64,000 nucleotides of DNA from the NCBI GenBank assembly GCA_019058165.1, contig JAHLVZ010000002.1, forward strand, positions 16,048 to 80,047. Direction: 5' to 3'. The translations under genes were made by a program, and so were the position numbers. The notes under the pieces were generated by a model, which had not been told where the DNA came from, searched no databases, and saw nothing but the letters and a program-made list of their open reading frames with translations. This document shows positions 10,818-58,590 of the stretch, in pieces; the first letter of the stretch is position 1; the number at the start of each line of letters is the position of its first letter. The DNA comes from Candidatus Heimdallarchaeota archaeon. Lineage in GTDB: Archaea; Asgardarchaeota; Heimdallarchaeia; JABLTI01.

Positions 10818-11115
10818 TATCTCACCAGCATGAACTGAATTAACTTGAGAAGCTTCAATGCTTATTAGGATAAAATACTCGATTCATTAATTAAATCGTT
10901 TGCTTAAATTTCTTGACTTGTACAAAATTAGTCCCATAAGAATTTATTAGTGCTTTTGTATACAAATAATATTTTCTGCGATTACTTGGTAAATCAATCA
11001 TTAATGATCAAGTAGAGAAACGAGTAATGAATGGATTCTTTGTAATTTTCATTATATTTCAATCACCCAAGTTCTGTTATTTAGTATTTTTTAAAGGAAA
11101 ACAAAGAGGGAGATA

Positions 11116-12018
11116 ATGTGGTTACAAGTGATAGATGAAATTCTGCAATTTCATGATAAAGGAGATGAAATTGTGAAGGTGCTTTGTGAGGAGCTTGGTG
11201 CAGAGGTGCTAGATGTTGATTTCCAATATTACGAGCTTACTACGCTCAAGATCTTACACAGTTCTTCTCAGGAGATTTTTGATTATTTATGTAAGAATGT
11301 GCAACAAGAAACTGATGTTATTCGAAAGAAATGTCTAATCTTTCTTATCGCCAAATTAATTGAGGAAATACAGCTTATCCCCTCTGTGACTATTGATATT
11401 CTTATGGATGAAACAGAAAGCCCATATATCTTATTCCGCTTAGCATTTGTTCTTTACCATGAACCTATCTTACAGACTCGTTGCATTGAGGTTTTTCGAC
11501 AAGTTATCCTAAATAAAGAGAACCATATGGACATGCGACATGAGTCCATTTCAATTTTGAATCGACTTGCAGAAATCGAGAAGCGTCCCATATTAATCCC
11601 TATTTTCCTTGAAATAATTGCATTAGAAGAGTACTATTTTGAAGATCCTTCTTTTGCAGGACATTGTATGGGAGATATTATTATTACAGATGATTCTTTT
11701 GATCCTGAATACTCAGAATATTGGATCATTGACATTAAAGAATTAGCTATCGATGGTCTTTCTTACTTTCCTGATCATTTTGAATTAGTTGCTACACCAT
11801 TGCTGAAGTTTATGACTGAAGAATATCAAATTGATGAGTACATCTCTGCTGTCGCTCGAACACTTACAGGTTACATCTTTGATGTCCCCCATGCTTCTAG
11901 ATTCCTTCTCGACAAAGTAGACTTTTTGTACAAAAATAATGAAGGAGCTAAAGTGATTGTAGATGCGATTCTGGAGTTTCATGGAGTAGAAAAGTCAGAT
12001 ACTCAGCTCCCTTTGTAA
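11116..12018 (+). CDS. hypothetical alpha-helical repeat protein
   Basis: 300-aa ORF with an ATG start and helical-repeat character. Convergent with the helicase operon. No motif recognised. Confidence 0.4.
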   Translation: MWLQVIDEILQFHDKGDEIVKVLCEELGAEVLDVDFQYYELTTLKILHSSSQEIFDYLCKNVQQETDVIRKKCLIFLIAKLIEEIQLIPSVTIDILMDETESPYILFRLAFVLYHEPILQTRCIEVFRQVILNKENHMDMRHESISILNRLAEIEKRPILIPIFLEIIALEEYYFEDPSFAGHCMGDIIITDDSFDPEYSEYWIIDIKELAIDGLSYFPDHFELVATPLLKFMTEEYQIDEYISAVARTLTGYIFDVPHASRFLLDKVDFLYKNNEGAKVIVDAILEFHGVEKSDTQLPL

Positions 12019-12116
12019 TAGCTTACTCATATCCAAAGAAGCTCGTGAGTTAAATAGCTCGTTTTTGTTGTAACAACTGAATACGTCTCACTCAGTCCAC
12101 AAATTTCTTCTCATTT

Positions 12117-12761
12117 TTATTTGTTTATGTCATTAAGCCATCGTATTACTTTGATTGGATCTTCTCTTTTTTCATCGTCAATTACAATGAAAACTCCAAC
12201 ATTTCTTTTAATATATTCCCTAGACCACTTCTCCTTTACCTTCCATCCACCAGTAGCGAAAACTCTATTATCCATGTCATAAAACGGTACGTGCGTGTGA
12301 CTTATAATTAACATATCTGTTGACAGAATTTTAGTGAGAAAGTTGATTGAATTAGCTATCAATTGTTTTTTAAGAGTGACAACAGCTTGATTCCAAGTTT
12401 CATTCACTTTTTTCTTCAAACCAATATTATGACCATGACAGATGATGAACCGTCCTTCTAAGGTGTTTAATTTCGCATATGGTATTACTTGAATGTCTGG
12501 TTTATCATAGAGCAAATTCCCCTCATGCCCCATTCCTCCTGTAACATAAACGATCTTCTCTTTACAACCTTCTATTGCACTCCAAGTAACAAACTCCTTT
12601 AATGCGTCATTAGCATTCTCATTATATGTGTCCAAGAAATCACCATTCATAATAATAATGTCTACTGTATTTGCGACGCTCTTGATTGCCTCTAAGAACT
12701 CCTTTCTTTTACAACCAGCAGCATCAAGGTGCACATCTCCAAATATTGCTGCTCTTGTCAA
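12117..12761 (-). CDS. calcineurin-like metallophosphoesterase (last gene of the helicase operon)
   Basis: Phosphoesterase motifs appear in order: GDVHLD, NGDFLD, GHEGN, CHGHN, SHTH. The TTG start overlaps the stop of the upstream helicase ORF (TTGA). Confidence 0.8.
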   Translation of the reverse strand: MTRAAIFGDVHLDAAGCKRKEFLEAIKSVANTVDIIIMNGDFLDTYNENANDALKEFVTWSAIEGCKEKIVYVTGGMGHEGNLLYDKPDIQVIPYAKLNTLEGRFIICHGHNIGLKKKVNETWNQAVVTLKKQLIANSINFLTKILSTDMLIISHTHVPFYDMDNRVFATGGWKVKEKWSREYIKRNVGVFIVIDDEKREDPIKVIRWLNDINK

Positions 12762-14185
12762 GTTTCAAGGTCCCCCTTTGTTTTTTCAGCTAAAATAGAT
12801 CTAACCATTCCAAGTGTTTCATCTGATGTTTGTTCTATGAATGGAAAAATAGCTGCTTGTGAACTTTGATTATTAGAAGTGCTCTGAAGTATTTTTCTTG
12901 CTTGATTCATTACCTTGTGAAATTCCCGAAAAAGATAAGCAGTATTTCCTAGTTCACCCCCTTTATCGTAAATTGCCAGCTTCCCTTCATATACATTTAT
13001 TGCAGTTCTAAAGGAAGGTTCTGAGATATGGAGAGTAATTTCAGCGCCTTTCAGAAGAAGATCTCTTAGTAAGGTTAAAGTGTCTTGTTTAATTTTATAC
13101 CCAACTTTCTTGCTTTGAAAAATAACTTCAACCAACATACCACTTGTCTTTTCTTGCCAATGGTAGGACTGCTTATGTTGGTGTGTAGGCTCGATTTTCT
13201 CCCCTGTTCGAGAGTACCTTATTACTTGAGTAGTTTCCTTTTGAATAACCATTCGCCCATAACGAATAATTAAATTGCCAATTTTTTGTACACGTGCTTG
13301 TTGACTAATTTGAAAAACAGGTGCTTTTAGTTTATTATATTCTATTGTAGACTTGTTAACGGCAAGTTTTTCTACAAATACCTTTCCTTCTACTATCTGT
13401 AACACTCGATAAACATCACCATGACTTCCTTGGAATAATAGATTACCAGGCAAAGCCATCCTTAAAATTCTCTGTTCTTCAATTTCTCCCACCATACGCT
13501 CAATTTTATTTTCTTGTTCAATTACTAACCATCTTTGTTCTATGGATCGAATCTTATGGTTACGAATAAAGAAATGCAGTTCCTGTTCATCAGCTATAAC
13601 TAATTCTTGTTTTCCACTATTTGTATCAAAACTCCGAGTACGAATGATTCCACTAGCTAGTAACATAGTGATTGCTGTCTTTGTTATATGTTCACATTCT
13701 GTAGTTTGGCAATAGGAAAGAATTTCATCGTTGTTTGTTAGACCCATACATATTCTGAAAAGTATGAAGGCTTTCAGTCTTTGAAGGGACTTTGAATCAA
13801 ATAGAATTTGCTCAGCAATATTTTCTTCAAGAATAGTCTTAATTATTCGATAATTTTCTAGATAGAAGTTATCCAGTGGTTGTTCTGTATCTAAAATGAT
13901 GGTGAAATTCTTCTTTTGAGCAACATCTCTAAATCGTAATCGACCAAATCTTTGAAGCAAACCATTTTTACCTGTTATCGGCCAACCAATATTAATAATA
14001 TGTTCTACTTTTGGAAGATCCATACCTAGCTCTAGTAACGATGTAGAAAACAGAAAATGAAGCGATCCATTTTTTATTCTCTTGTGAATATTTGTCTTAT
14101 CCTGCTCTGTAAGTTGACTATTGATACATACAAAAGGTGAATTGAGTTTTACAACTTCTAGTGGTAACCCAGTTCTCTTCATCAA
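12758..14185 (-). CDS. SF2 helicase, C-terminal fragment (RecA2 domain plus C-terminal extension)
   Basis: Helicase C-domain pattern: FLFSTSLLELGMDLP...INIGWP...LLQRFGRLRF (motifs V/VI-like). The frame stays open upstream to 14203 and continues the N-terminal fragment after a 1-nt shift. Confidence 0.8.
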   Translation of the reverse strand: MMKRTGLPLEVVKLNSPFVCINSQLTEQDKTNIHKRIKNGSLHFLFSTSLLELGMDLPKVEHIINIGWPITGKNGLLQRFGRLRFRDVAQKKNFTIILDTEQPLDNFYLENYRIIKTILEENIAEQILFDSKSLQRLKAFILFRICMGLTNNDEILSYCQTTECEHITKTAITMLLASGIIRTRSFDTNSGKQELVIADEQELHFFIRNHKIRSIEQRWLVIEQENKIERMVGEIEEQRILRMALPGNLLFQGSHGDVYRVLQIVEGKVFVEKLAVNKSTIEYNKLKAPVFQISQQARVQKIGNLIIRYGRMVIQKETTQVIRYSRTGEKIEPTHQHKQSYHWQEKTSGMLVEVIFQSKKVGYKIKQDTLTLLRDLLLKGAEITLHISEPSFRTAINVYEGKLAIYDKGGELGNTAYLFREFHKVMNQARKILQSTSNNQSSQAAIFPFIEQTSDETLGMVRSILAEKTKGDLET

Positions 14186-14205
14186 ACGTTCATTGAAAGT
14201 TGCTA

Positions 14206-15063
14206 CTAACTGACTTTTTGTATGCTATCAACAAATACTAGACAAACTCCACCCGTTCTTTGAAGATGTGGGTCAATTCGTTCAAATATGAACCGCTCAA
14301 GTGAAGCTTTGGGGAGGATCATTACTCGGACAACTCCTCGTTTGCCAACTGCTTGAACAATTTTAGCACTTGGTAGGAAATTATCACGAAATGAATCGAC
14401 ATCCTTGACTGTTGCAGAAGCAAGAATCACTCGAAGTTTTGGATTGATTTTTTTGAAAACATCAATAAACTCTCGAACATGAGTTAAATATCCTCCAGAA
14501 CCTGCATGAATCTCATCTAAGACAAGCACATCTGTTTGTTTAATCCAGTCGAGAAATCCATGTTTATCTTCCTTGAAACATCTATAAAATAGCTTGTCTA
14601 AAGTAGCAAGAAGAATCTGTGGTTTTTTCTTCTCAATCTGTTCCAAGTCTTGTTTTGATAAATCTCCATTATATCTACTATAAGTAATTGTTCTACCCGT
14701 TGCTTCAAGTATTTGATTGCAGTAATAAGCTAGTCTTTGTTCTTGGTCTGCTGCTAGTTGTTTAGTTGGGTAAATAATAACTGCATTTGTAGCCTTCTCC
14801 TCCAACAGATCTTTTAAAATAGGAAACATGAATACTTCTGTTTTTCCAGCTCCAGTTCCAACAGTAAGGAAAAGATCATTACCAGCAAGAACTGTTTTCA
14901 TAGATTCTATCTGATATTTGTATAGTGTATGTGGAAACACTTGTTTCAATATATCTCCAAGTTCATTCATACCTACTTCTGGGTCATCAATGTAGTAATT
15001 TGCTTTATCACTTTCTTGAGGTAAAATGTTGAAGGTTGCTTTAATGATACAATGATTTGACAA
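14206..15063 (-). CDS. SF2 DEAD/DEAH-box helicase, N-terminal fragment (RecA1 domain)
   Basis: Motif I GTGAGKT, Ia YPTKQLAADQ, II LDEIH, III ASAT. The ORF ends at a TAG directly after the sequence LVFVDSIQKVS. Confidence 0.85.
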   Translation of the reverse strand: MSNHCIIKATFNILPQESDKANYYIDDPEVGMNELGDILKQVFPHTLYKYQIESMKTVLAGNDLFLTVGTGAGKTEVFMFPILKDLLEEKATNAVIIYPTKQLAADQEQRLAYYCNQILEATGRTITYSRYNGDLSKQDLEQIEKKKPQILLATLDKLFYRCFKEDKHGFLDWIKQTDVLVLDEIHAGSGGYLTHVREFIDVFKKINPKLRVILASATVKDVDSFRDNFLPSAKIVQAVGKRGVVRVMILPKASLERFIFERIDPHLQRTGGVCLVFVDSIQKVS

Positions 15064-15065
15064 AC

Positions 15066-15629
15066 TTATTTACATCCTAATTTTTCGACTCCAAATAAAA
15101 AAGGTAAAATTGATTCGAATTCTATCTTTAAGAAATTCATAATTTCATCATTGGAATTTGTGTTACATTTAGAATAAAAATTGAGTATTCTTGTAATTGA
15201 CTCAGATATTACTTCCTCTCTTCTTCCTTGAGATAAGAAATTTGTATTTGAGAATAATTCTATTAACATATTTTGTTCCAGATATTCCTTTTGAGAGATT
15301 TCCTTTTGCAATTCTTTTTGTTGTAGTAATTCGTAACATATATGCGTATCAATTCGTAAATGTGATGGCAATAATAATCCAAATGAAAGGCTGTTGTAAA
15401 GTTGCACTAAATTATCTAAATGTGTCCCTTCCTTTAAACCAAAATGATACTTATATTTTGTACCTACACGCCAAATTAAACCCTTTTCTCGTAAATCGTT
15501 GAGAGTCGCATAAGTTTCAGAAAGATCTATATTTGCACCAATTGCTATCTCCTTGGCACTTTTTGGGTAGGCAATACCATATTTTGTGAAATCATTTAGT
15601 AGATGCCACATTACTTTGTATGAATCCAT
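15066..15629 (-). CDS. winged-helix DNA-binding protein (operon member)
   Basis: N-terminal wHTH-like stretch SAKEIAIGANIDLSETYATLNDLREKGLIWRVG. ATG start. Overlaps the upstream ORF by 19 nt. Confidence 0.5.
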   Translation of the reverse strand: MDSYKVMWHLLNDFTKYGIAYPKSAKEIAIGANIDLSETYATLNDLREKGLIWRVGTKYKYHFGLKEGTHLDNLVQLYNSLSFGLLLPSHLRIDTHICYELLQQKELQKEISQKEYLEQNMLIELFSNTNFLSQGRREEVISESITRILNFYSKCNTNSNDEIMNFLKIEFESILPFLFGVEKLGCK

Positions 15630-17113
15630 TCTATATCTAGCTCCTCAAACTGATTACAGTACTCCACTACCCGAGGTGAGAATTTGTTAGAAGGTAGATC
15701 ATGCTTTTCCAGAAATTCTTCCTCTCGTGTTTCAAACAAAGAGGGTATTAAATTAAAACCGGCAAGATCTTTGTTTGCTTTCTCTTCGGTTTGTTTCATT
15801 GGGAAATATATTAAAGGCTTGAAACTTGTCCTTAGAATCTCTTCTTGGCATATTTTGAAAGCTAACTCTTTCAATTGTACTTTTATTACTGGTTCCAAAG
15901 AAGTCCATTGAATTGCTAACCGCCAAAATCTTACCGGAATTTCTCTATCACAATTCTTTATTTTCACCAATAATTGCTTCTTTAGAAATCTTTGATGAAC
16001 CACTGACAACAATTTGTCAAATTCAACAATAAATTGCTTACAGGCTTCTCGGAAAGTTTGGTAGGATCTTCCATTAAAATAACATGGACTACTAAATAAT
16101 TCCTGTTTCAATCTATGCAATACTTCCCCTCCTTTTTTATTCACTACATAGATAACCTCTCCTCTAAACACATCAAGAGAACTAATACATGAGTCAGTTA
16201 TTCTCTTTTCAACGATTGCTTTTACTAATGCGACATGTCCAGCAAATTTCAATGCTTCACACAAATCTAGGACTAAACCCATCCAAGAGAGATCAGAATA
16301 ATAGCTGAAATGATTGAAGCCACCAACACCAAGATATTTTAAACCAAGCTCTTCCAGTATGATCCACAATTCCTCTTCACAAAGAATAAACATATGGTTA
16401 AAAAGCACATCTCCTTTGGTTCGAGCCATCGTCTTATAATTACCTACTACCCTTTTTAGTGAGAATAATCTATTGGAAACTCGATTGCTGATAACAATTC
16501 CACAAGGTCCTAGAAGCTCATTAGTTACTCTCCAGGTTACATCTGCTGCGGTTGCTTCAGAAAGATTACAAAGAATACTCGAATGACAATTACGACCGTA
16601 CTGATATGTATCACCTATTTTATCTTTAAAGAACTGTAATTTCTGGTTGTCTGATGCAAATCCAAAAAGTGCTTGAATCATTGCTAAGCGATTTGACAAA
16701 TTCGAGCGCCAAAAAGTGTTGATAAATCCTGAAGAAAATCGGATAACATCTACTGTAAGTGCCTTTTGATAATCCATCCGGTCGACGTGAAACCATCCTT
16801 TTGGAGAACTAACTCGAACATAATGACATCCTGCAGTTATTAATCTCTGTTTTATCTCTTCGGTAATGCCTTGATGGTCATACACAAAATGAATGTCTGA
16901 AATATTATATTGAAGCTTTCCAACAGTTAATATTTCATCAGCTATAATCGATACTTGTTGCCCTGGTAATATTTGAAAACCTAATCGTACTTTATGTTTT
17001 TTTCTAACCTCATCAATAGTTAGTCCTGTTAGTTTGTACACTTCTTTATTGAAGATGTGCCGATTATCCTTAACGCATAACACAAAATGGTCAACATTTT
17101 TACTATTACTCAA
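15611..17113 (-). CDS. hypothetical 500-aa protein (operon member)
   Basis: Long uninterrupted ORF tightly coupled to its neighbours. No motif recognised by eye. Confidence 0.5.
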   Translation of the reverse strand: MSNSKNVDHFVLCVKDNRHIFNKEVYKLTGLTIDEVRKKHKVRLGFQILPGQQVSIIADEILTVGKLQYNISDIHFVYDHQGITEEIKQRLITAGCHYVRVSSPKGWFHVDRMDYQKALTVDVIRFSSGFINTFWRSNLSNRLAMIQALFGFASDNQKLQFFKDKIGDTYQYGRNCHSSILCNLSEATAADVTWRVTNELLGPCGIVISNRVSNRLFSLKRVVGNYKTMARTKGDVLFNHMFILCEEELWIILEELGLKYLGVGGFNHFSYYSDLSWMGLVLDLCEALKFAGHVALVKAIVEKRITDSCISSLDVFRGEVIYVVNKKGGEVLHRLKQELFSSPCYFNGRSYQTFREACKQFIVEFDKLLSVVHQRFLKKQLLVKIKNCDREIPVRFWRLAIQWTSLEPVIKVQLKELAFKICQEEILRTSFKPLIYFPMKQTEEKANKDLAGFNLIPSLFETREEEFLEKHDLPSNKFSPRVVEYCNQFEELDIEWIHTK

Positions 17114-17114
17114 A

Positions 17115-19160
17115 TCAATTACACCTCGTTTTCTTTCTTTTTTGGATTAGTTTAAAGGTTGTATTGCATACTGGACAACTAACTGCTATCAAACCCTGAG
17201 TTGGTCGGTCACCTGTACCAAAGTCTTCTAGTACTACTTCTCTTCCCTCAAAAAAGCAATCAGGACATAAATATACAAGCAACTCCTCTCCTTCAAGTGT
17301 TTGACCTGAGAAACTCTTAGGAATGTGATCAATAAATTCCTCAATAGTAAACACCTTTGTTACTGATTCTTTTGCTTGAAAATGTTCACACCCAATAGTA
17401 TTACTTCTGAGTGTCTCAGTTATTCTAAGAAGATCTTCATCTGATATCATCCGTTCGGCAATACTCTTTACTCTCTGCCAGAAAGTACAACGTTTCTTTA
17501 CATACCAATGACAATCACCACAAACAACGTTGAAATGATCAGGAAAACCCTTGCATGAATAATAAGCCAAACTTCTCCCTTTGGGAGGTTTCCCTATTAA
17601 TTTCTCCACTTGGAAACCATTTGTAATCAAATCTTGTATTGCTTGAGTTACTTCAAAGGTGTTGATAACAAGCATTGAGGAAATCTTGTATAAAGTAAGT
17701 GGATAATCAGCGTTAATTAGTAAATCTTTTACTACTCGCTCAAGAGTTCGTCTATCCATTTTCATAATTAAAGAGGATTCACTTGAATCTAAGGAATTCA
17801 ATCTGATCTTATCTAAGACCCTTATGTTGTCTTTTGCTTGCTGGGTCATTTGTTCTTTAAAGCAGTTTAATAATTGAGTAACTTGGAAAAGCAAATAGCT
17901 GTTTTTGGAATTCTTTAAAATCTCTTCAATTGTTTCCTTTTCTTCTTTGGTAGGTTCTAATGTTCCTAATAGGAGCTGTAAATCATCAAATTGTAATTGT
18001 CCTTTTGTAAAATCGCTAAAAATCTCTTGGACTATTGACCAATTAATGATGTCATTTTCAGTTTTTTTTCGGATGGTTGTTAAAAGTTCTATAGGATTAT
18101 TTAGTGTCTCTTTAAAGTAAGTTGAAGCAATAAGAAACTTTTTCCCAAATTCAGTTAAAGTGAAACGACTGTAACAATTTCGATCCTTTGTTACTAATGC
18201 AAATGGTCCAAGCAGTTCTTTTTGCAAACCATCGAATAATGTAAAACCTTGATTAAACTCTAATTGGAAAATTTTTTCAACAAGAAATTCTTGCATTTCT
18301 ATTTCTTTTTTCTTGGATTCTGTTTGAAAGATTCGAGTATAAATTGTATCTATTAATCGCTCTAGAAGATCTTTTTTGGAGGGTGATCCAGAGTATAAAT
18401 TCACAAGAATATAACGTAAAAGAGAATTCTGTAAATTATCATCTTTTGTGTAATGGTAGAGTGCAAGTAATGTGTTTATTGAAGCAGTTGTTATATTTTT
18501 GAATCCTATCTCTATATCTTCGATTGGAATCAGTCCCGTTGAAATGAAGTGTTTTCGAATATGTGTTTTTTCTCGTCTTGGAAGAAGGGAGAAAAGCGAA
18601 TCGATATCATTAATACACCAAGATTTCTTAGAGGAATTAAGTGATTTATTTTCATCTAGTGGATCCACAAAGATATACGCGTCAACTATAGGCAGCTGAA
18701 CTTTCTTTTTCAATGAATCGTCTTTGCTTTTACGATACAATAAAGTCCGAAGTAGAGTAGAATAACTTGTTATGATAAGTTTGTTTGCTGCTAGTGGCTG
18801 ACTGTTTCCTTTAAATTTTGAAAATGTTGAAGCAATCTTAATGCCTGCAAGGTGTTTTCTAGAGAACAGATCTGATTGTTCTTTTTCTGAGTTAACATAG
18901 TTGTAAATCTTTCTAGCTTGTTCTGAAGTTCGAACGACAATCATAGCTGTTTGATTTGATAATCTTGCTGATAGTAATGCAATAGTGACTGCCAATGATA
19001 TTTGGTCCGGAGGAATTATTCCGTAAAAGAAAATGTCTGTTTCACGTTTAACAGTTTTCCGAATTATATCCAAATCAATTTCATCTGGAAAGGGATACTC
19101 CCGAAGGATTGTGGTAAAACTGATAGGATTGTTTCTATAGTAATCAGTTGTCATCCTCAC
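17115..19160 (-). CDS. helicase-like (Walker-A-less RecA1-like) protein with wHTH and C-terminal zinc ribbons
   Basis: The N-terminus parallels the helicase segment by segment but lacks GxGKT. A wHTH-like stretch is present (LTLYKISSMLVINTFEVTQAIQDLITNGF). CxxC pairs: CGDC, CPDC, CPVC. The start may be the ATG at 19154. Confidence 0.5.
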   Translation of the reverse strand: MRMTTDYYRNNPISFTTILREYPFPDEIDLDIIRKTVKRETDIFFYGIIPPDQISLAVTIALLSARLSNQTAMIVVRTSEQARKIYNYVNSEKEQSDLFSRKHLAGIKIASTFSKFKGNSQPLAANKLIITSYSTLLRTLLYRKSKDDSLKKKVQLPIVDAYIFVDPLDENKSLNSSKKSWCINDIDSLFSLLPRREKTHIRKHFISTGLIPIEDIEIGFKNITTASINTLLALYHYTKDDNLQNSLLRYILVNLYSGSPSKKDLLERLIDTIYTRIFQTESKKKEIEMQEFLVEKIFQLEFNQGFTLFDGLQKELLGPFALVTKDRNCYSRFTLTEFGKKFLIASTYFKETLNNPIELLTTIRKKTENDIINWSIVQEIFSDFTKGQLQFDDLQLLLGTLEPTKEEKETIEEILKNSKNSYLLFQVTQLLNCFKEQMTQQAKDNIRVLDKIRLNSLDSSESSLIMKMDRRTLERVVKDLLINADYPLTLYKISSMLVINTFEVTQAIQDLITNGFQVEKLIGKPPKGRSLAYYSCKGFPDHFNVVCGDCHWYVKKRCTFWQRVKSIAERMISDEDLLRITETLRSNTIGCEHFQAKESVTKVFTIEEFIDHIPKSFSGQTLEGEELLVYLCPDCFFEGREVVLEDFGTGDRPTQGLIAVSCPVCNTTFKLIQKRKKTRCN

Positions 19161-19794
19161 TCACTTTTTCAGTTGATATTAATTTTTCTAGTTGCTCAGG
19201 TAGTAATAGTAATTCTTCGCCAACAAACCAATCAAGAGCTTGTTTTATATGTATAATTAATTCATCAGATGAATAATCAGATAGAATAGTGACAGGAAAC
19301 TTCTCCAGAAAATACTCACACAACTCTTGCACTGTTTCTTCTTCATTACTTAACCAATCAATTAGAGAATCAAAGTGCATTCTGCAGTTAGTGAGTTGTT
19401 GCAGGAAAGAATCATCTGGTTTAGTAGATAATTTGTTTTCGAGTTCCTTTTGTATATCAAATTGTGGTTGATCAATTAAAAGCAGAAAACGTAGAAGAGG
19501 ATTATTTATATTAATTTCAAGTGGTTGAGTTGTAGAACGTGTATTTTTCTTTAATATATGAAAACCAACTAAAGCATCGGTTACATATTTTATACTTCTC
19601 GTTGAGATGGAGGAGTGTAAGTGTGTCTCTAGGAATTTTACTGACGGAATGACACTTTGGTTATAATTTACGTAATAATTAGCAAGAAATTCAATCATCA
19701 ATCGAGTATTTTTAGTGACTTTTATGTCCGTAAAAATGATTCCAAAATCATTATCTGATGATCCCAAGCCACCTATAACTTCCATTTTTATCAA
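19144..19794 (-). CDS. hypothetical wHTH-like protein (first gene of the operon)
   Basis: ISTRSIKYVTDALVGFHILKK resembles a recognition helix plus wing. The likely true start is the ATG at 19785. Overlaps the next ORF. Confidence 0.45.
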   Translation of the reverse strand: MIKMEVIGGLGSSDNDFGIIFTDIKVTKNTRLMIEFLANYYVNYNQSVIPSVKFLETHLHSSISTRSIKYVTDALVGFHILKKNTRSTTQPLEININNPLLRFLLLIDQPQFDIQKELENKLSTKPDDSFLQQLTNCRMHFDSLIDWLSNEEETVQELCEYFLEKFPVTILSDYSSDELIIHIKQALDWFVGEELLLLPEQLEKLISTEKVSEDDN

Positions 19795-20015
19795 TAATCT
19801 ACTTGAGAAATTATCCTTTTAAAGTTCTAAAAGTGCAAAAAAACCAAAAGGTCAGAAAATACAAGTCTGAAAGAAGGCAGGAGAAAGCTTCTTTTCCACT
19901 TACGGAAGATTACTTTATGTCCCTTTAGAGTTTCTTTAATTATGAATTTTTGTTTTTTTCTATTTCTTTTTCAATTCTGAAGAGCATCTCACAACAGAAT
20001 CATCTTCAATGGGTC

Positions 20016-20110
20016 TCTCAGTAACTCGTGTTCGTTCCGACCGTAGAAGGAGGACTCCATGAAATGGAGGAAGTAGGTCGACACGAGGGGAGCGTTCAGC
20101 GACTGAGGGG
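20016..20110. ncRNA. candidate structured RNA (GC-rich nested stems), function unknown
   Basis: Nested complementary segments: 20016-20023/20103-20110 (8 bp), 20026-20032/20082-20088 (7 bp), 20039-20043/20077-20081 (5 bp), 20056-20061/20065-20070 (6 bp, GAA loop). The stretch is much more GC-rich than its surroundings. A T6 run lies at about 20131-20136 on the + strand. Confidence 0.35.
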
Positions 20111-20200
20111 TATATTGATTGATAAATAGTTTTTTCATTCCGATTTGTGGGTAACTCTTCAAACCTTATTTTATGCTTTTGATTTCGGAGTAGCTATTTG

Positions 20201-21811
20201 TCACTTTTTTTTTGTCTGAAAGAATGTTTTGAGATATAATTGTAAAACGGTATTATGTATTTGATTAATATTAGAGGTTTTCACATCGAAATATTCGCAG
20301 AGAGTATCTGGAATGTTAGAAGCTTCGTCTCGACTGGAATGGATTAGAAGATATCTATTTCGGCGTGATAGATTCTTGACTAAACTTAGTAATTTGTTAG
20401 ACGGTTGTAGAGACAATCTAGCATGCGATCTCCGAGAACGAAAATACGTCAGATTATTAGTATCAAGAAAAACCATCAGATGATTGGGTGCTGCAGGAAG
20501 CTTCGGTAAAAGTTTCTCCAATAAGGATAGCGGTAGACTATCACGATATTCATATGATGCTAGAAGTCCTTTAGATATTCCAAGAAAATCAGCCATCTCT
20601 TTTTGTGTCAGTGACCAGAGTTTTCGAGCTGATTGTAGGAATTTCGCACACTTGATAACATGAAGTGAAGAAAACTGAGAAAAGTCAAAATATTGCGTAC
20701 CATTAAACGTTAGAATTGCTCCATGTTTATAATCAATATACTGATGATCAGTTGAACTGGATGCTAGATTATATCTTCGGAGAGAAAGATAGGTTTCGAA
20801 TTCTCTCTTCTTTATTGGATGTCGAGGGTGTAAGAGTCTGGAGAGAATTGCTTTTGACTTAGCCTTAATATTAACAGTAAATCCCACACCGAAATCTGTT
20901 TGCCGTTCAGAAAAAGCCTGGCTTATACCAAAGTCTGTTAAAACATGAATGAATTCTAGAGCAAAAAATTTTGAAGAAGTACTAAAACTTACACTTCTTT
21001 TATAGCTCCCATCTGCATCCAACACACCAGACCAAAACTGCCAACGAAGAGAGTCATCAGATTGAAAGATAAGAGGTTCTCGTAATGCGGGATATTTCTT
21101 CCCGGTTATTGGTTGATCTGTAAGGAAATTAGTTAATCGAACAAGCCATTTATTGTTTAGATGTAATAACCATGTTTTCTTCTCACCGGAAATAGTCCCT
21201 TCAATTCCGAAAAGCTTCTTTGCTATAGCTTGAAGCATAAGCATGTGTTCTTTTGAAAAGTCTACTAATTCTATATTGTGAAAGTTAAGATGTCCATCAC
21301 CGATAACTACTCCTAAGAAATATGCTAGATCGCTTGTTAATCTTGTTGGTAAATGAAAATGTTCTCCACGAGCAGATTGAAAAGGAACAAATTCTTGGAT
21401 TAGAAAATCTTGCCACTGATCACATAACCGGAAGAGGGGAAATGGCAACCGTTTTTGATTATCCAAGTAATTAATTAGTTTAGTTTGCCATTTCTTTATT
21501 GAATAATCGATTGCTGTTTTCTGAAAGTAATAATGACATCGTTCAGCTAACAGAAGAGTCGCTTTTCGCATTTTATTTGTTAAAGAATCAGATAAGGTGA
21601 CATAGGGAAAGCTTTGTAATAATCGTTTACCTGATTGAAAATCTATTTTTCGAAGCATTATAGCAAAAAGATTGAGAATATTTGGTTGAAGAAAGATTGT
21701 ATCTTGAACTTGTCTTTCAATTAATTTGTTTGCAGTTAACCATTGATTCTTAGAAGTCGGGATAGTATCAATGAGCATTGGGTCATTTTGCCAATTGAGA
21801 GTCTTAAACAT
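20201..21811 (-). CDS. free-standing double-LAGLIDADG domain protein fused to an XRE-type HTH
   Basis: LAYFLGVVIGDGHL and WSGVLDADGSY (two LAGLIDADG motifs). These are followed by LTQKEMADFLGISKGLLASYE (HTH). No host gene or intein context. Confidence 0.7.
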   Translation of the reverse strand: MFKTLNWQNDPMLIDTIPTSKNQWLTANKLIERQVQDTIFLQPNILNLFAIMLRKIDFQSGKRLLQSFPYVTLSDSLTNKMRKATLLLAERCHYYFQKTAIDYSIKKWQTKLINYLDNQKRLPFPLFRLCDQWQDFLIQEFVPFQSARGEHFHLPTRLTSDLAYFLGVVIGDGHLNFHNIELVDFSKEHMLMLQAIAKKLFGIEGTISGEKKTWLLHLNNKWLVRLTNFLTDQPITGKKYPALREPLIFQSDDSLRWQFWSGVLDADGSYKRSVSFSTSSKFFALEFIHVLTDFGISQAFSERQTDFGVGFTVNIKAKSKAILSRLLHPRHPIKKREFETYLSLRRYNLASSSTDHQYIDYKHGAILTFNGTQYFDFSQFSSLHVIKCAKFLQSARKLWSLTQKEMADFLGISKGLLASYEYRDSLPLSLLEKLLPKLPAAPNHLMVFLDTNNLTYFRSRRSHARLSLQPSNKLLSLVKNLSRRNRYLLIHSSRDEASNIPDTLCEYFDVKTSNINQIHNTVLQLYLKTFFQTKKK

Positions 21812-21980
21812 ATTCTTTCTCCTACCATTTTATTCCAATTTGCTTTCTTAAATACCTCTTAGAAAAGCTGTACGGAAAATTAATTATTTAACTATTCTTT
21901 TAAACAAATGATAATACTTTCAGCTAACCCTTTATAAAAACTACATATATCTAGTGGTATTTATACATTGTTGAATAAAA

Positions 21981-23177
21981 ATGGCAAAACGAGTAGCTCG
22001 AATTCAACTACCATCCACAAAACTCTTCGAGGAACTTACATTTCTTGCTAAGAATCTCTACAATTCAGCCACTTACTTAGTTCGACAAACATTCTTTGAA
22101 ACAGGCAACATTCTGCGATATTATTCAATCTGGAACAAGATGAGAGAAAAAGAGGATTACAAGAAACTTGAGGAGAGAGCAGGAAGCCATACACCACAGC
22201 AACTCTTACGGATGGTGGAAGCAACTTGGGAAGGATACAAAGCAGCGAAAGAGGATTGGCGCATTAATCCTGAGAAATACCTCGGAAAACCAAAGATACC
22301 GGGTTACTTACCAAAGAATGGTCGATTCATTGTAGTTTGGTCGGAGCAACAAGTAAGAATTAGAGAAGGGAAAGTGAAGGTAGTAGAGAGACTCATGAAG
22401 GAAGGTTTTCCAGCGATCCCAACAGAAAAACTACCAGTCACTGAAACAAATATTGCTATCGTCCGCTTAAAGCCATTCTTCGATAAATTCATGTTGGAGT
22501 TAGTGTATGAAAAGGAAGTACCGACAATCAAAGTAAGAGAGGAACAAAAGATTCTTGGACTGGACTTAGGTGTTAACAACCTCGTAGCCACGTCAGATGG
22601 GTTACTCATCAAGGGCGGGGTTGTCAAGTCGATCAACCAATTCTTCAACAAGCAAAAAGCAAAGATGCAAGCACAGCTAAGCAAGCAAGGACTTACGACT
22701 AGTAAGAAAAAACAAAAGCTAATGCGTTGGCGTCATGATAAACTACATGACCTATTTCATAAAGCATCAAGAGCGATTATTCAACACTGCCTTGAGAACA
22801 ACATTTCCTCACTGGTCATTGGTCGCAACAAAAATTGGAAACAAAACATCAGAATGGGCAGGAAGATTAACCAGAAATTCACCAATGTTCCTTTCCACAA
22901 ACTCGTAAAGATGCTGCAGTACAAAGCAGAGGAGCAAGGAATAGAAATCACACTCATTACAGAAGAATACACCTCTCAAACATGTTCATGTTGCGGTTAC
23001 CGTTCACGAAGCAACCGCAAGTACCGAGGATTGTTTGTTTGCAAAAAATGCAAACTAGTTATTAACGCTGATGTCAATGCAGCAAGAAATATTGCCAAAA
23101 AAGCATTCCCTGAGTCCCTTTTAGGGATAGGGGATAGTGGCTGTGTGGCGCAGCCAACAAAGCTTATTGCTTTGTGA
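21981..23177 (+). CDS. tnpB: TnpB (OrfB) RNA-guided nuclease / IS605-family transposase accessory protein
   Basis: RuvC-I LDLGVNNLVATSDG, RuvC-II EEYTSQTC, zinc ribbon CSCCG...CKKC, RuvC-III NADVNAARNI. Confidence 0.9.
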   Translation: MAKRVARIQLPSTKLFEELTFLAKNLYNSATYLVRQTFFETGNILRYYSIWNKMREKEDYKKLEERAGSHTPQQLLRMVEATWEGYKAAKEDWRINPEKYLGKPKIPGYLPKNGRFIVVWSEQQVRIREGKVKVVERLMKEGFPAIPTEKLPVTETNIAIVRLKPFFDKFMLELVYEKEVPTIKVREEQKILGLDLGVNNLVATSDGLLIKGGVVKSINQFFNKQKAKMQAQLSKQGLTTSKKKQKLMRWRHDKLHDLFHKASRAIIQHCLENNISSLVIGRNKNWKQNIRMGRKINQKFTNVPFHKLVKMLQYKAEEQGIEITLITEEYTSQTCSCCGYRSRSNRKYRGLFVCKKCKLVINADVNAARNIAKKAFPESLLGIGDSGCVAQPTKLIAL

Positions 23178-23215
23178 ATTTTTGTATACAAATAATGTCA
23201 TTAGCAAACGGAATA
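23040..23215 (+). ncRNA. candidate omega (re)RNA scaffold of TnpB
   Basis: By analogy with known TnpB loci, the guide RNA overlaps the 3' end of tnpB and the right end of the element. Local hairpins are seen (TCCCT-TTTT-AGGGA, GGCTG-TGTGGCG-CAGCC). The extent is not determined. Confidence 0.3.
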
Positions 23216-23216
23216 C

Positions 23217-23224
23217 TTTTTAAA
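23217..23224 (+). promoter_or_regulatory. TATA-box-like element upstream of the SRP RNA
   Basis: TTTTTAAA lies about 23-30 nt upstream of the predicted SRP RNA 5' end at 23247. This is typical archaeal spacing. Confidence 0.4.
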
Positions 23225-23246
23225 GGTGAAAATCACAAAAAATCTT

Positions 23247-23554
23247 GGCAAGTCTAAGCGGAGAGCTAGGGCTCCTCTATAACGGCAAATGCTCTTAGCC
23301 GGCTGAAGACCTAAGTTGAGGTGATGAGATTAATTCAAGCGCCCAACAGAAGCCGTCGAAACGACGTCCTAGAAGATGTTTAATCGTAGAGACCTTCACC
23401 GGAGGGTAAGGTTAGAAAGCGTAGGGACCAAATCGGTTAGGCACGGAAGTGAGCGGCCGTCCGTCCTGTTAGGCATGCCTCTGGGGTTGCGGCGTGGAGG
23501 TAACTGTTGGTCAGCGGGGTTTTAATTAAGTCATCGAACTTTGGGACTTGCCAC
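23247..23554 (+). ncRNA. ffs: signal recognition particle RNA (archaeal 7S RNA)
   Basis: The termini pair (GGCAAGTC / GACTTGCC). Alu-domain features are present: CTAAG/CTTAG helix 2 enclosing two hairpins and a UAUAAC turn. The helix-8 motif AGGCACGGAAGTGAGCGGCC matches the conserved AGGUCCGGAAGGAAGCAGCC. The region is GC-rich and followed by a T-run. Confidence 0.75.
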
Positions 23555-58485: not shown

Positions 58486-58590
58486 TGGCGCCGGCAACAG
58501 GATTTGAACCTTTAACCCAACAAGGAAGAATCCCTTATTGTGTGGCCACTCGGTTAACAGCCGAGAGCTCTACCGCTGAGCTATGCCGGC
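58486..58590 (-). tRNA. tRNA-Asn (GUU) with a 30-nt non-canonical intron in the T-arm; CCA encoded
   Basis: Hand-folded cloverleaf. Acceptor GCCGGCA/TGCCGGC, D arm GCTC-AGCGGTA-GAGC, anticodon arm CTCGG-CTGTTAA-CCGAG. The T arm ACA|GG-TTCAAAT-CCTGT forms only after removing 58511-58540. Discriminator G followed by CCA. Confidence 0.85.

Follow-up and report, generated by a model that had tools for sequence, protein, structure and literature searches.

A divergent Cas1-like protein in a conserved operon, the probable backbone of casposon-like integrative elements in Heimdall-group Asgard archaea

Proteins of the Cas1 family act in two settings, namely the integration of spacers in CRISPR systems and the transposition of casposons, of which those of family 2 target tRNA ends; CRISPR adaptation is thought to have descended from casposons. 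Here we describe a conserved operon coding for a highly divergent Cas1-like protein, recovered from a contig of Candidatus Heimdallarchaeota archaeon (JAHLVZ010000002.1, assembly GCA_019058165.1, positions 16,048-80,047 of the forward strand); this whole stretch of 64,000 nucleotides (nt) is hereafter called the window. Judging from sequence comparisons, we favor with moderate confidence the reading that the operon is the backbone of casposon-like, polymerase-less integrative elements of approximately 12-14 kb in Heimdall-group Asgard archaea. In several loci, the elements sit at the 3' ends of tRNA genes; they swap between genomes and are present in up to three copies per genome.

Like casposons, and especially those of family 2, these elements encode a Cas1-family protein, for which the M. 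mazei casposase is both the best structural match and the sole profile match, and they are integrated between direct repeats at tRNA 3' ends, tRNA-Pro included, with tandem arrangements. Unlike casposons, they have no detectable family B DNA polymerase or consistent terminal inverted repeats, their direct repeats measure 17-33 nt as against about 14-15 nt, and their Cas1-like protein is far more divergent, missing the Pfam cut-off. To this are added a predicted obligate partner of 681 amino acids (aa), a helicase, a phosphoesterase, a LAGLIDADG protein and a conserved non-coding element, which set them further apart from casposons. The elements share with the CRISPR adaptation module the Cas1 fold and catalytic residues, and some remote relatives have a PD-(D/E)XK domain upstream of the Cas1-like domain, comparable to the Cas4-Cas1 fusions of CRISPR systems; the combination of a superfamily 2 (SF2) helicase with a separate nuclease is loosely analogous to type I Cas3. 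Unlike CRISPR-Cas systems, however, the locus shows no Cas2, no array in the window and no effector genes, its helicase is MrfA-like and its nuclease is a metallophosphoesterase (MPE) rather than an HD protein.

The theme of Cas1 diversity in Asgard archaea has been raised before: as described in a review (PMC8730458), Makarova et al. (2020; CRISPR J 3:156) found the diversity of Cas1 homologs among Asgard genomes to be unprecedented, with a possible association of some of them with novel mobile elements. Our comparison with those homologs goes as far as the description in that review, which shares this theme with the present locus. A literature search recovered no description of the cassette, with Makarova et al. 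(2020) covered through the same review, and part of the finding may already be contained in that work.

The features of the locus in the window are as follows (g0 to g6 denote the genes; ORF, open reading frame; HTH, helix-turn-helix):

10954..10970 and 23180..23196, no strand: left and right copies of the 17-nt direct repeat TTTTGTATACAAATAAT, an exact match
11116..12018, plus strand: 300-aa ORF, lineage-specific cargo in the 12.25-kb block, no match in Pfam
12117..12761, minus strand: g6, calcineurin-type MPE, 214 aa, Metallophos at 25.2 bits
12758..14185, minus strand: g5b, C-terminal helicase fragment, 475 aa (RecA2 and a tail of ~360 aa), Helicase_C at E=2.1e-11
14206..15063, minus strand: g5a, N-terminal SF2 helicase fragment, 285 aa (RecA1), DEAD at E=4.5e-28
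15066..15629, minus strand: g4, 187 aa, probable N-terminal winged helix, sub-cut-off Pfam matches
15611..17113, minus strand: g3, Cas1/casposase-superfamily protein by structure and sequence profile, putative integrase, 500 aa
17115..19160, minus strand: g2, 681 aa, partner of g3 carrying a winged helix and CxxC zinc ribbons, fused to a Cas1-like domain in protein P0037
19144..19794, minus strand: g1, 216 aa, conserved in position, no family or PDB match
19859..20114, minus strand: conserved non-coding element, 74-77% nt identity across cassettes
20201..21811, minus strand: g0, LAGLIDADG protein with C-terminal Xre-type HTH, 536 aa, adjoining every cassette with available flank
21838..21992, no strand: stretch upstream of g0 conserved at the DNA level, 70-75% identity to loci L002, L005, L009 and L011
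21981..23177, plus strand: TnpB, 398 aa, with OrfB_IS605 and Cas12f1-like_TNB domains, lineage-specific, at the right end of the block

The 500-aa product of g3, in which a previous reading made from the sequence alone (the sequence-only reading) had recognized no motif, proves to be a Cas1/casposase homolog by both structure and profile. An AlphaFold model built from 20 sequences (pLDDT 67, pTM 0.67, the loop with the catalytic His being of low confidence) displays the two-domain Cas1 fold, i.e. an N-terminal beta domain followed by a C-terminal helical catalytic domain. When this model is compared with the PDB using Foldseek, the top 37 matches are all Cas1 or casposase structures, the first being the M. 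mazei casposase (6opm, E=2.4e-6, probability 1.00); 34 of the 37 have probabilities of 0.98-1.00, with a target TM score of about 0.5 over ~350-390 aligned columns. Alignments confined to Heimdall sequences retrieved no PDB match for either g2 or g3; g3 reached the casposase after remote homologs were added, the combined profile (alignment A5) having 6opm_A as its sole PDB match (E=9.3e-8), and the HMMER alignment with it spans the EG..W, N, G.LH and LxxDLxE catalytic motifs. H268 and D283 are invariant across 26 sequences, remote homologs included, while E186 is Glu in all but two of these (Asp in those) and position 286 is always Asp or Glu. On this modeled fold and profile alignment, g3 is identified as a very divergent protein of the Cas1/casposase superfamily with its predicted catalytic residues intact.

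The Pfam Cas_Cas1 model gives no match to g3 of the window and near-threshold matches to two relatives alone (one member of the family at E=0.024; the remote homolog P0046 at 21.8 bits against a cut-off of 22.3), which is why the family is annotated as hypothetical. An exhaustive hidden Markov model search of 1.84 billion representative proteins yielded 24 relatives of g3, mostly long proteins with a g3-like C-terminal part, and a repeat homolog search with alignment A5 returned only the known 20 proteins. A viral origin was also considered and rejected: the Foldseek comparison of the g3 model with viral structures was negative and the family is absent from IMG/VR.

The long relatives of g3 also clarify the relationship of g2 to it. 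Over its full length, the g2 protein aligns with the first 720 residues of P0037 (BLASTP E=1e-26 over g2 residues 50-679), the remainder of which is g3-like, and the same fusion is discernible by eye in P0038, P0039, P0048 and others. Also by eye, a PD-(D/E)XK nuclease domain lies between the g2-like and Cas1-like parts in P0040, P0043 and P0045, with Pfam support in P0040 and P0043. Because these distant relatives fuse the two, g2 and g3 are predicted to work together, and the gene architectures mark g2 as an obligate partner of g3. The g2 protein itself features a winged helix and conserved Cys pairs (CxxC); its AlphaFold model is poor (pLDDT 49, especially residues 1-242) and Foldseek recovers winged-helix fragments only from it. 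The winged-helix pieces and Cys pairs that had been noted in g2 stand. The SF2-like N-domain attributed to it is a suggestion made by eye from a motif pattern (VVRT..ARKI, IITSY and IFVDP) and found no support: hhalign of g2 against the helicase family gives a probability of 0.2%, and there is no Pfam or PDB match.

As a separate observation, six giant proteins of 1166-1599 aa (P0040, P0043, P0045, P0049, P0052 and P0055; loci L019 and L020) combine a g2-like N-terminal part, zinc ribbons and a Cas1-like part, and look like an uncharacterized wider family. The g2 gene is broken into two or three ORFs in L002 (10001-12074), L005 (7902-9974), L009 and L012; like the split helicase of the window (see below), this suggests frequent inactivation or assembly errors.

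The contexts of the fusion genes in remote systems delimit a core. In L017, a helicase with a faint MZB domain comes after the fusion gene, and a Metallophos_2 gene after the helicase; in L018, a MarR-like winged helix-turn-helix (wHTH) gene precedes the fusion gene, which is followed by a helicase with MZB and a Metallophos_2 gene; and in L020, the order is MazE, a TnpB-like protein, a LAGLIDADG_3 gene, the fusion gene and a helicase with MZB. As these contexts repeat the pattern, the stable core comprises g2 and the Cas1-like g3 along with a small phosphoesterase and a helicase of the MrfA type, and the LAGLIDADG protein recurrently accompanies this core.

The evidence for mobility comes in part from tRNA genes found at the MPE end of the cassettes. 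In L004, a tRNA-Ala gene lies 7 nt past the MPE stop codon on the opposite strand, with its CCA end towards the cassette; in L001, a tRNA-Pro is found at 76 nt and in L014, a tRNA-Lys at about 100 nt; and, with introns allowed, a tRNA-Ala is detected 122 nt (L008) and 15 nt (L012) from the MPE end. Direct repeats of the tRNA 3' end recur upstream in L004 (472-501, 28/30 identical; 1150-1172, 21/23) and in L001 (165-193, 27/29; 1238-1270, 30/33), where they delimit elements of about 14 kb along with a small tandem remnant. Overall, the flanking direct repeats are 17-33 nt long, and in L004 and L001 one copy falls inside the 3' end of the tRNA (Ala and Pro, respectively). Furthermore, the cassettes of L004 and L008 are 87% identical over 10.7 kb with flanks of 64-73% identity, while L008 and L012 are 82-93% identical in their flanks and have cassettes that are about 65-70% identical or unalignable. 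This disagreement between cassettes and flanks indicates that different versions occupy the same tRNA-Ala site.

In the window, the mobile unit is a block of 12.25 kb (10953-23201) in which the cassette and g0 are accompanied by the 300-aa ORF and TnpB. Its identity to L015/L016 is 96%, and outside the block the window has nothing in common with them: homology ends at 10953 and 23201. These breakpoints coincide with the exact 17-nt direct repeat, for which the chance expectation is 0.13 (<=2 mismatches); the repeat has the palindromic core TTTGTATACAAA, and the same palindrome is present at both ends of the block. Between the TnpB stop and the right end there are 24 nt, and a further 45 nt separate this end from the signal recognition particle (SRP) RNA, which starts at 23246. 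At 23101-23264 on the plus strand, a match (30.6 bits, below the gathering score) to Rfam sot0042, which is a sense-overlapping RNA of IS1341-type genes, overlaps both the 3' end of TnpB and the boundary, and is probably the guide-RNA scaffold of this TnpB.

These ends bear on an alternative that we regard as unlikely, namely that the elements are moved by an unrecognized or trans-supplied recombinase, perhaps of the IS200/IS605 type via the TnpB-side end in the window, with the Cas1-like operon serving replication or repair alone. In keeping with it, the window block resembles IS200/IS605 elements in having TnpB and the sot0042 match at its boundary and the same palindrome at both ends, such that IS605-like mobilization of a large cargo is conceivable; att-like tRNA-end repeats with tandem copies resemble the products of tyrosine recombinases, as in the tRNA-targeting elements of the pNOB8/SSV type, which likewise have tRNA 3' ends as targets, tRNA-end direct repeats and tandem remnants; and several genes of the elements have no assigned function. 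On the other hand, neither a recombinase nor TnpA was detected in any element: unlike the pNOB8/SSV-type elements, the repeat-bounded elements have no tyrosine or serine recombinase detectable by Pfam, and unlike IS200/IS605 elements, the window block has no TnpA and the left flanks of the window and L015 show no common target motif. Moreover, most cassettes come without TnpB and, to our knowledge, Cas1-family proteins have only integrase or nuclease roles.

That the cassette is a backbone and not a passenger is suggested by its distribution. Of the 5.8 billion searched, 14 homolog clusters were found for g2 and 20 for g3. All named matches and eight of the eight loci from genome collections belong to metagenome-assembled genomes (MAGs) of "Candidatus Heimdallarchaeota", and seven further loci come from metagenomes. 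The gene order is identical in about 20 loci, consistent with the single conserved, co-oriented gene unit that had been proposed; the six genes are indeed conserved together, although the unit is larger than first drawn as g0 and the non-coding element also belong to it. Three assemblies carry three divergent copies each, with g3 identity between copies of about 43%. The cassette is the sole part common to all elements, while the remaining genes vary and include a NERD-nuclease protein, MazE, TPR proteins, the 300-aa ORF (found in L015/L016 only and not conserved with other cassettes) and TnpB. It is this restriction of the common part to the cassette that leads us to interpret it as backbone rather than cargo.

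The main rival explanation, which we hold to be possible if rather doubtful, takes the opposite view of the same distribution: the cassette would be a defence or nucleic-acid surveillance system carried as cargo by integrative elements or situated in defence islands. Here, scanning of foreign DNA would fall to the MrfA-type helicase, nuclease action to the Cas1-like, phosphoesterase and LAGLIDADG proteins and regulation to the wHTH/HTH proteins, with the Cas1-like protein being a nuclease or a non-CRISPR "adaptation" enzyme as opposed to the integrase of an element. The divergent copies per genome, the swapping at one locus and the frequent inactivating mutations are typical of defence genes; the neighbors include MazE, VapBC and the NERD-nuclease protein; the helicase core resembles DruE, BrxH, Cas3 and MrfA; and in several remote homologs the Cas1-like domain is preceded by a PD-(D/E)XK (Cas4-like) domain. 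The review cited above (PMC8730458) also states that Asgard archaea possess derived CRISPR-related systems with Cas1. Against it, the cassette behaves as a backbone would, in being the sole constant part of repeat-bounded elements, and no other detected integrase explains the tRNA-end repeats.

The scans for known systems also speak against defence, in that no CRISPR array, Cas2 or effector genes were found and, of the seven ORFs tested, five are without a PADLOC model. With the PADLOC-DB version used, which dates from 2023, the matches are confined to the helicase fragments (parts of DruE, BrxH, Cas3 and related models), with none for g1-g4 or g6, and across Pfam, NCBIfam and PADLOC, run on all products, nothing rises above the cut-offs for g1-g4; the sequence-only reading, too, had found the composition to fit no named defence system. 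Neither Cas2 nor any other Cas family was matched in these scans beyond the partial helicase matches, and no CRISPR array is present among the tandem and direct repeats of the 64-kb window. Of the two hypotheses previously entertained for the block, a surveillance/defence module and a module of an integrated element, it is the latter that emerges as better supported.

Several observations weigh against interpreting the cassette as the backbone of casposon-like elements. Flanking repeats at tRNA ends are also a classic signature of tyrosine-recombinase elements, and an undetected or trans-acting recombinase could act in place of g3; a COG1205-type helicase combined with nucleases is what defence systems typically contain, and genes for toxin-antitoxin and NERD-nuclease proteins do occur near the cassettes. 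The upstream repeat copies have 2-3 mismatches, implying either old insertions or att sites that are not target duplications. No terminal inverted repeats are common to the elements, no polymerase, primase or recognizable replication initiator was found in the cassette or the repeat-bounded elements, the loci of subfamilies B/C (L002, L005, L006 and L010) have no tRNA gene or clear repeats, and the cassette family was not found in IMG/VR.

If the casposon-like reading is correct, the complex of g2 and g3 would be the integrase, attaching a copy of the element, linear or excised, by its 3'-OH ends to staggered positions in the target, much as casposases do at tRNA 3' ends, and the flanking repeats of 17-33 nt would arise from this staggered joining. 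Along with the helicase and the phosphoesterase, g0 might serve to excise, unwind or trim the DNA of the element; as a LAGLIDADG nuclease, it would leave 3'-OH overhangs. The palindrome and A-rich non-coding element would be a cis-acting site, either a replication origin or a control region. The polymerase would be supplied by the host. More tentatively, we propose that this amounts to a third use of Cas1, wherein a divergent integrase with a winged-helix/zinc-ribbon partner moves polymerase-less elements into tRNA genes, a LAGLIDADG protein supplies the 3'-OH-ended substrates, the 17-33-nt duplications fall between the sizes of those of casposons and CRISPR repeats, and the fusion family represents an unexplored branch of Cas1.

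A further Cas1 branch, lying below Pfam detection and distinctive in its own partner protein, its helicase-nuclease pair, its lack of a polymerase and its tRNA-targeting elements, would widen the view of Cas1 integrases and of the evolution of CRISPR adaptation, to whose origin the fusion-protein family would be relevant if the proposal is true. It would also define a mobile-element family for that Asgard lineage which is closest to eukaryotes and in which such elements have so far been little described. The proteins are open to testing in vitro, with a putative integrase and its partner identified along with element ends and a tRNA 3' end as target.

The remaining genes of the cassette add to this picture. 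The helicase, initially read as one gene of a six-ORF operon, is in fact two ORFs in different frames (g5a and g5b) within a block that is otherwise real and tightly packed. The frame break results from the loss of one GTCA of the tandem GTCAGTCAGT, a 4-bp deletion at about 14206-14215; L015, L016 and L008 retain the repeat, and the helicase is intact (769-785 aa) in all other copies examined, including those whose g3 is 98% identical to that of the window. A programmed frameshift or a homopolymer error was rejected because what has been lost is 4 bp of the GTCA tandem. Losing 4 bp from such a short tandem has the appearance of a genuine mutation as opposed to a sequencing error in a homopolymer, though it may alternatively be an assembly artefact. 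Thus, the notion of a "decayed" element applies to the helicase of the window copy alone, as close relatives carry intact copies.

All the motifs formerly listed for the helicase (GTGAGKT, PTKQLAADQ, DEIH and SAT) are present. Its suspected COG1205/MrfA affinity is borne out by the family profile, whose best PDB match is MrfA/YprA (6znp, E=4.9e-20) over both RecA domains, ahead of eIF4A, Cas3 and a 2108-aa DEAD/DEAH helicase. The C-terminal MZB/DUF1998 zinc domain is undetected by Pfam in the window helicase; MZB is present in the helicases of the remote systems L017 (faint), L018 and L020. The calcineurin-like assignment of g6 holds, with Metallophos exceeding its cut-off of 21.5 bits, and its metal ligands (DxH, GD, HGH and HxH) are invariant, remote systems included. 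It matches generic YfcE-type models, its similarity to PDB structures (YfcE/Mre11/SbcD) is weak, and against the Pseudomonas MPE 6nvo it scores E=0.55.

These two proteins raise the alternative of a duplicated chromosomal repair operon of the host, coding for a helicase-nuclease pair like MrfAB or Lhr-MPE. Indeed, the placement of a small MPE beside a helicase recalls the Lhr-core/MPE operon, the best PDB match of the helicase is MrfA, with MZB/DUF1998 carried by the helicases of remote relatives, and its best NCBIfam match is the ligase-associated DEXH helicase TIGR04121; the last, however, reaches 108 bits, far below the cut-off of 850. MrfAB and Lhr-core/MPE are repair operons with neither a Cas1-like protein nor mobility, and the window helicase is without detectable MZB. 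Moreover, the range of the cassette is narrow (the 14-20 protein clusters noted above, the named ones all from Heimdall-group MAGs), its relationships disagree with those of its flanks, close relatives have it in different contexts, it is bounded by repeats at tRNA genes and its genes are inactivated in several copies, all of which render this explanation highly improbable.

Between g0 and g1 lies the conserved non-coding element of ~260 nt, with 74-77% nt identity where the flanking g1 and g2 proteins are 26-45% identical. Its counterparts are found in L004 (6988-7248), L005 (6857-7121) and L007 (4054-4314), and there is one copy per cassette. It comprises an imperfect palindrome of ~95 nt, a variable stretch rich in A, a second conserved block (TTCTAAAGGGAC.TAAAGTAA.CTTCCG) and a hairpin followed by a T-run, the latter directly before a TATA-like box ahead of g1. 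No Rfam family matches it. In a hand-drawn pairing, 88.5% of the cells pair in register as compared to 26-48% with the partner columns slid; covariation in support of the pairing is weak, with three pairs covarying and uncompensated changes in one helix. The structure obtained with RNAalifold is weak and fold z-scores of -0.42 and +0.14 are not significant. The element may act as an RNA, or else as a DNA site, for instance an origin or a binding site.

The protein g0 adjoins every cassette whose flank was available and, with 45-67% identity across subfamilies, is better conserved than g1-g4. Its profile matches intein homing endonucleases (7qsu, E=2e-10) and HipB-type HTH domains; it consists of a single-chain LAGLIDADG domain with two invariant catalytic Asp residues and, C-terminal to it, an HTH of the HipB/Xre type. 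Upstream of it, the conserved stretch at 21838-21992 overlaps the start of TnpB in the window, and may be a promoter/leader region or the end of an element. In g1, a wHTH had been suspected; comparisons with Pfam, NCBIfam and PDB profiles offer it no support and find no family or PDB match at all. A MarR-like wHTH gene occupies the g1 position in the remote L018. For g4, the proposed wHTH finds weak backing in Pfam matches below the cut-offs to TrmB (E=6.7e-4) and the MCM_C wHTH (E=2e-3) and in a match to PDB 2lvs (E=6e-4); the gene is absent from the remote systems L017 and L018.

The positions of the ORFs and their tight start/stop junctions are as originally described: g1 and g2 overlap by 17 nt, g2 and g3 are separated by 1 nt, g3 and g4 overlap by 19 nt, a gap of 2 nt separates g4 from the helicase, and the helicase end overlaps the MPE by 4 nt. 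The surroundings likewise agree with the view of an accessory patch amid housekeeping genes: the left side has aconitase, citrate synthase and an FMN dehydrogenase, the right side the LAGLIDADG/Xre-HTH gene, TnpB and the SRP RNA.

Additional observations concern genes and ends at other loci. A protein of 710-729 aa adjoins g0, with a small MazE-like gene, in L004 (2631-4763), L006 (4132-6321) and L001 (3054-5213), on the minus strand; it has a C-terminal NERD/Hjc-like nuclease domain in L004 and L006, and is absent from the window. Isolated inverted repeats at plausible ends are seen in L012 (1343-1359/14965-14981, 16/17 identical) and L021 (3593-3608/14358-14373, 16/16); their sequences differ and they could be terminal inverted repeats or chance matches. 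Intron-containing genes for tRNA-His (L020, 2203-2310) and tRNA-Arg (L021, 3398-3503) are located on the complementary strand directly upstream of g0, i.e. at the opposite end of the cassette from the tRNAs of L001, L004, L008, L012 and L014. In the window itself, where the standard scan finds no tRNA, ARAGORN with introns allowed identifies an intron-containing tRNA-Gly(tcc) gene at 58486-58590 on the minus strand.

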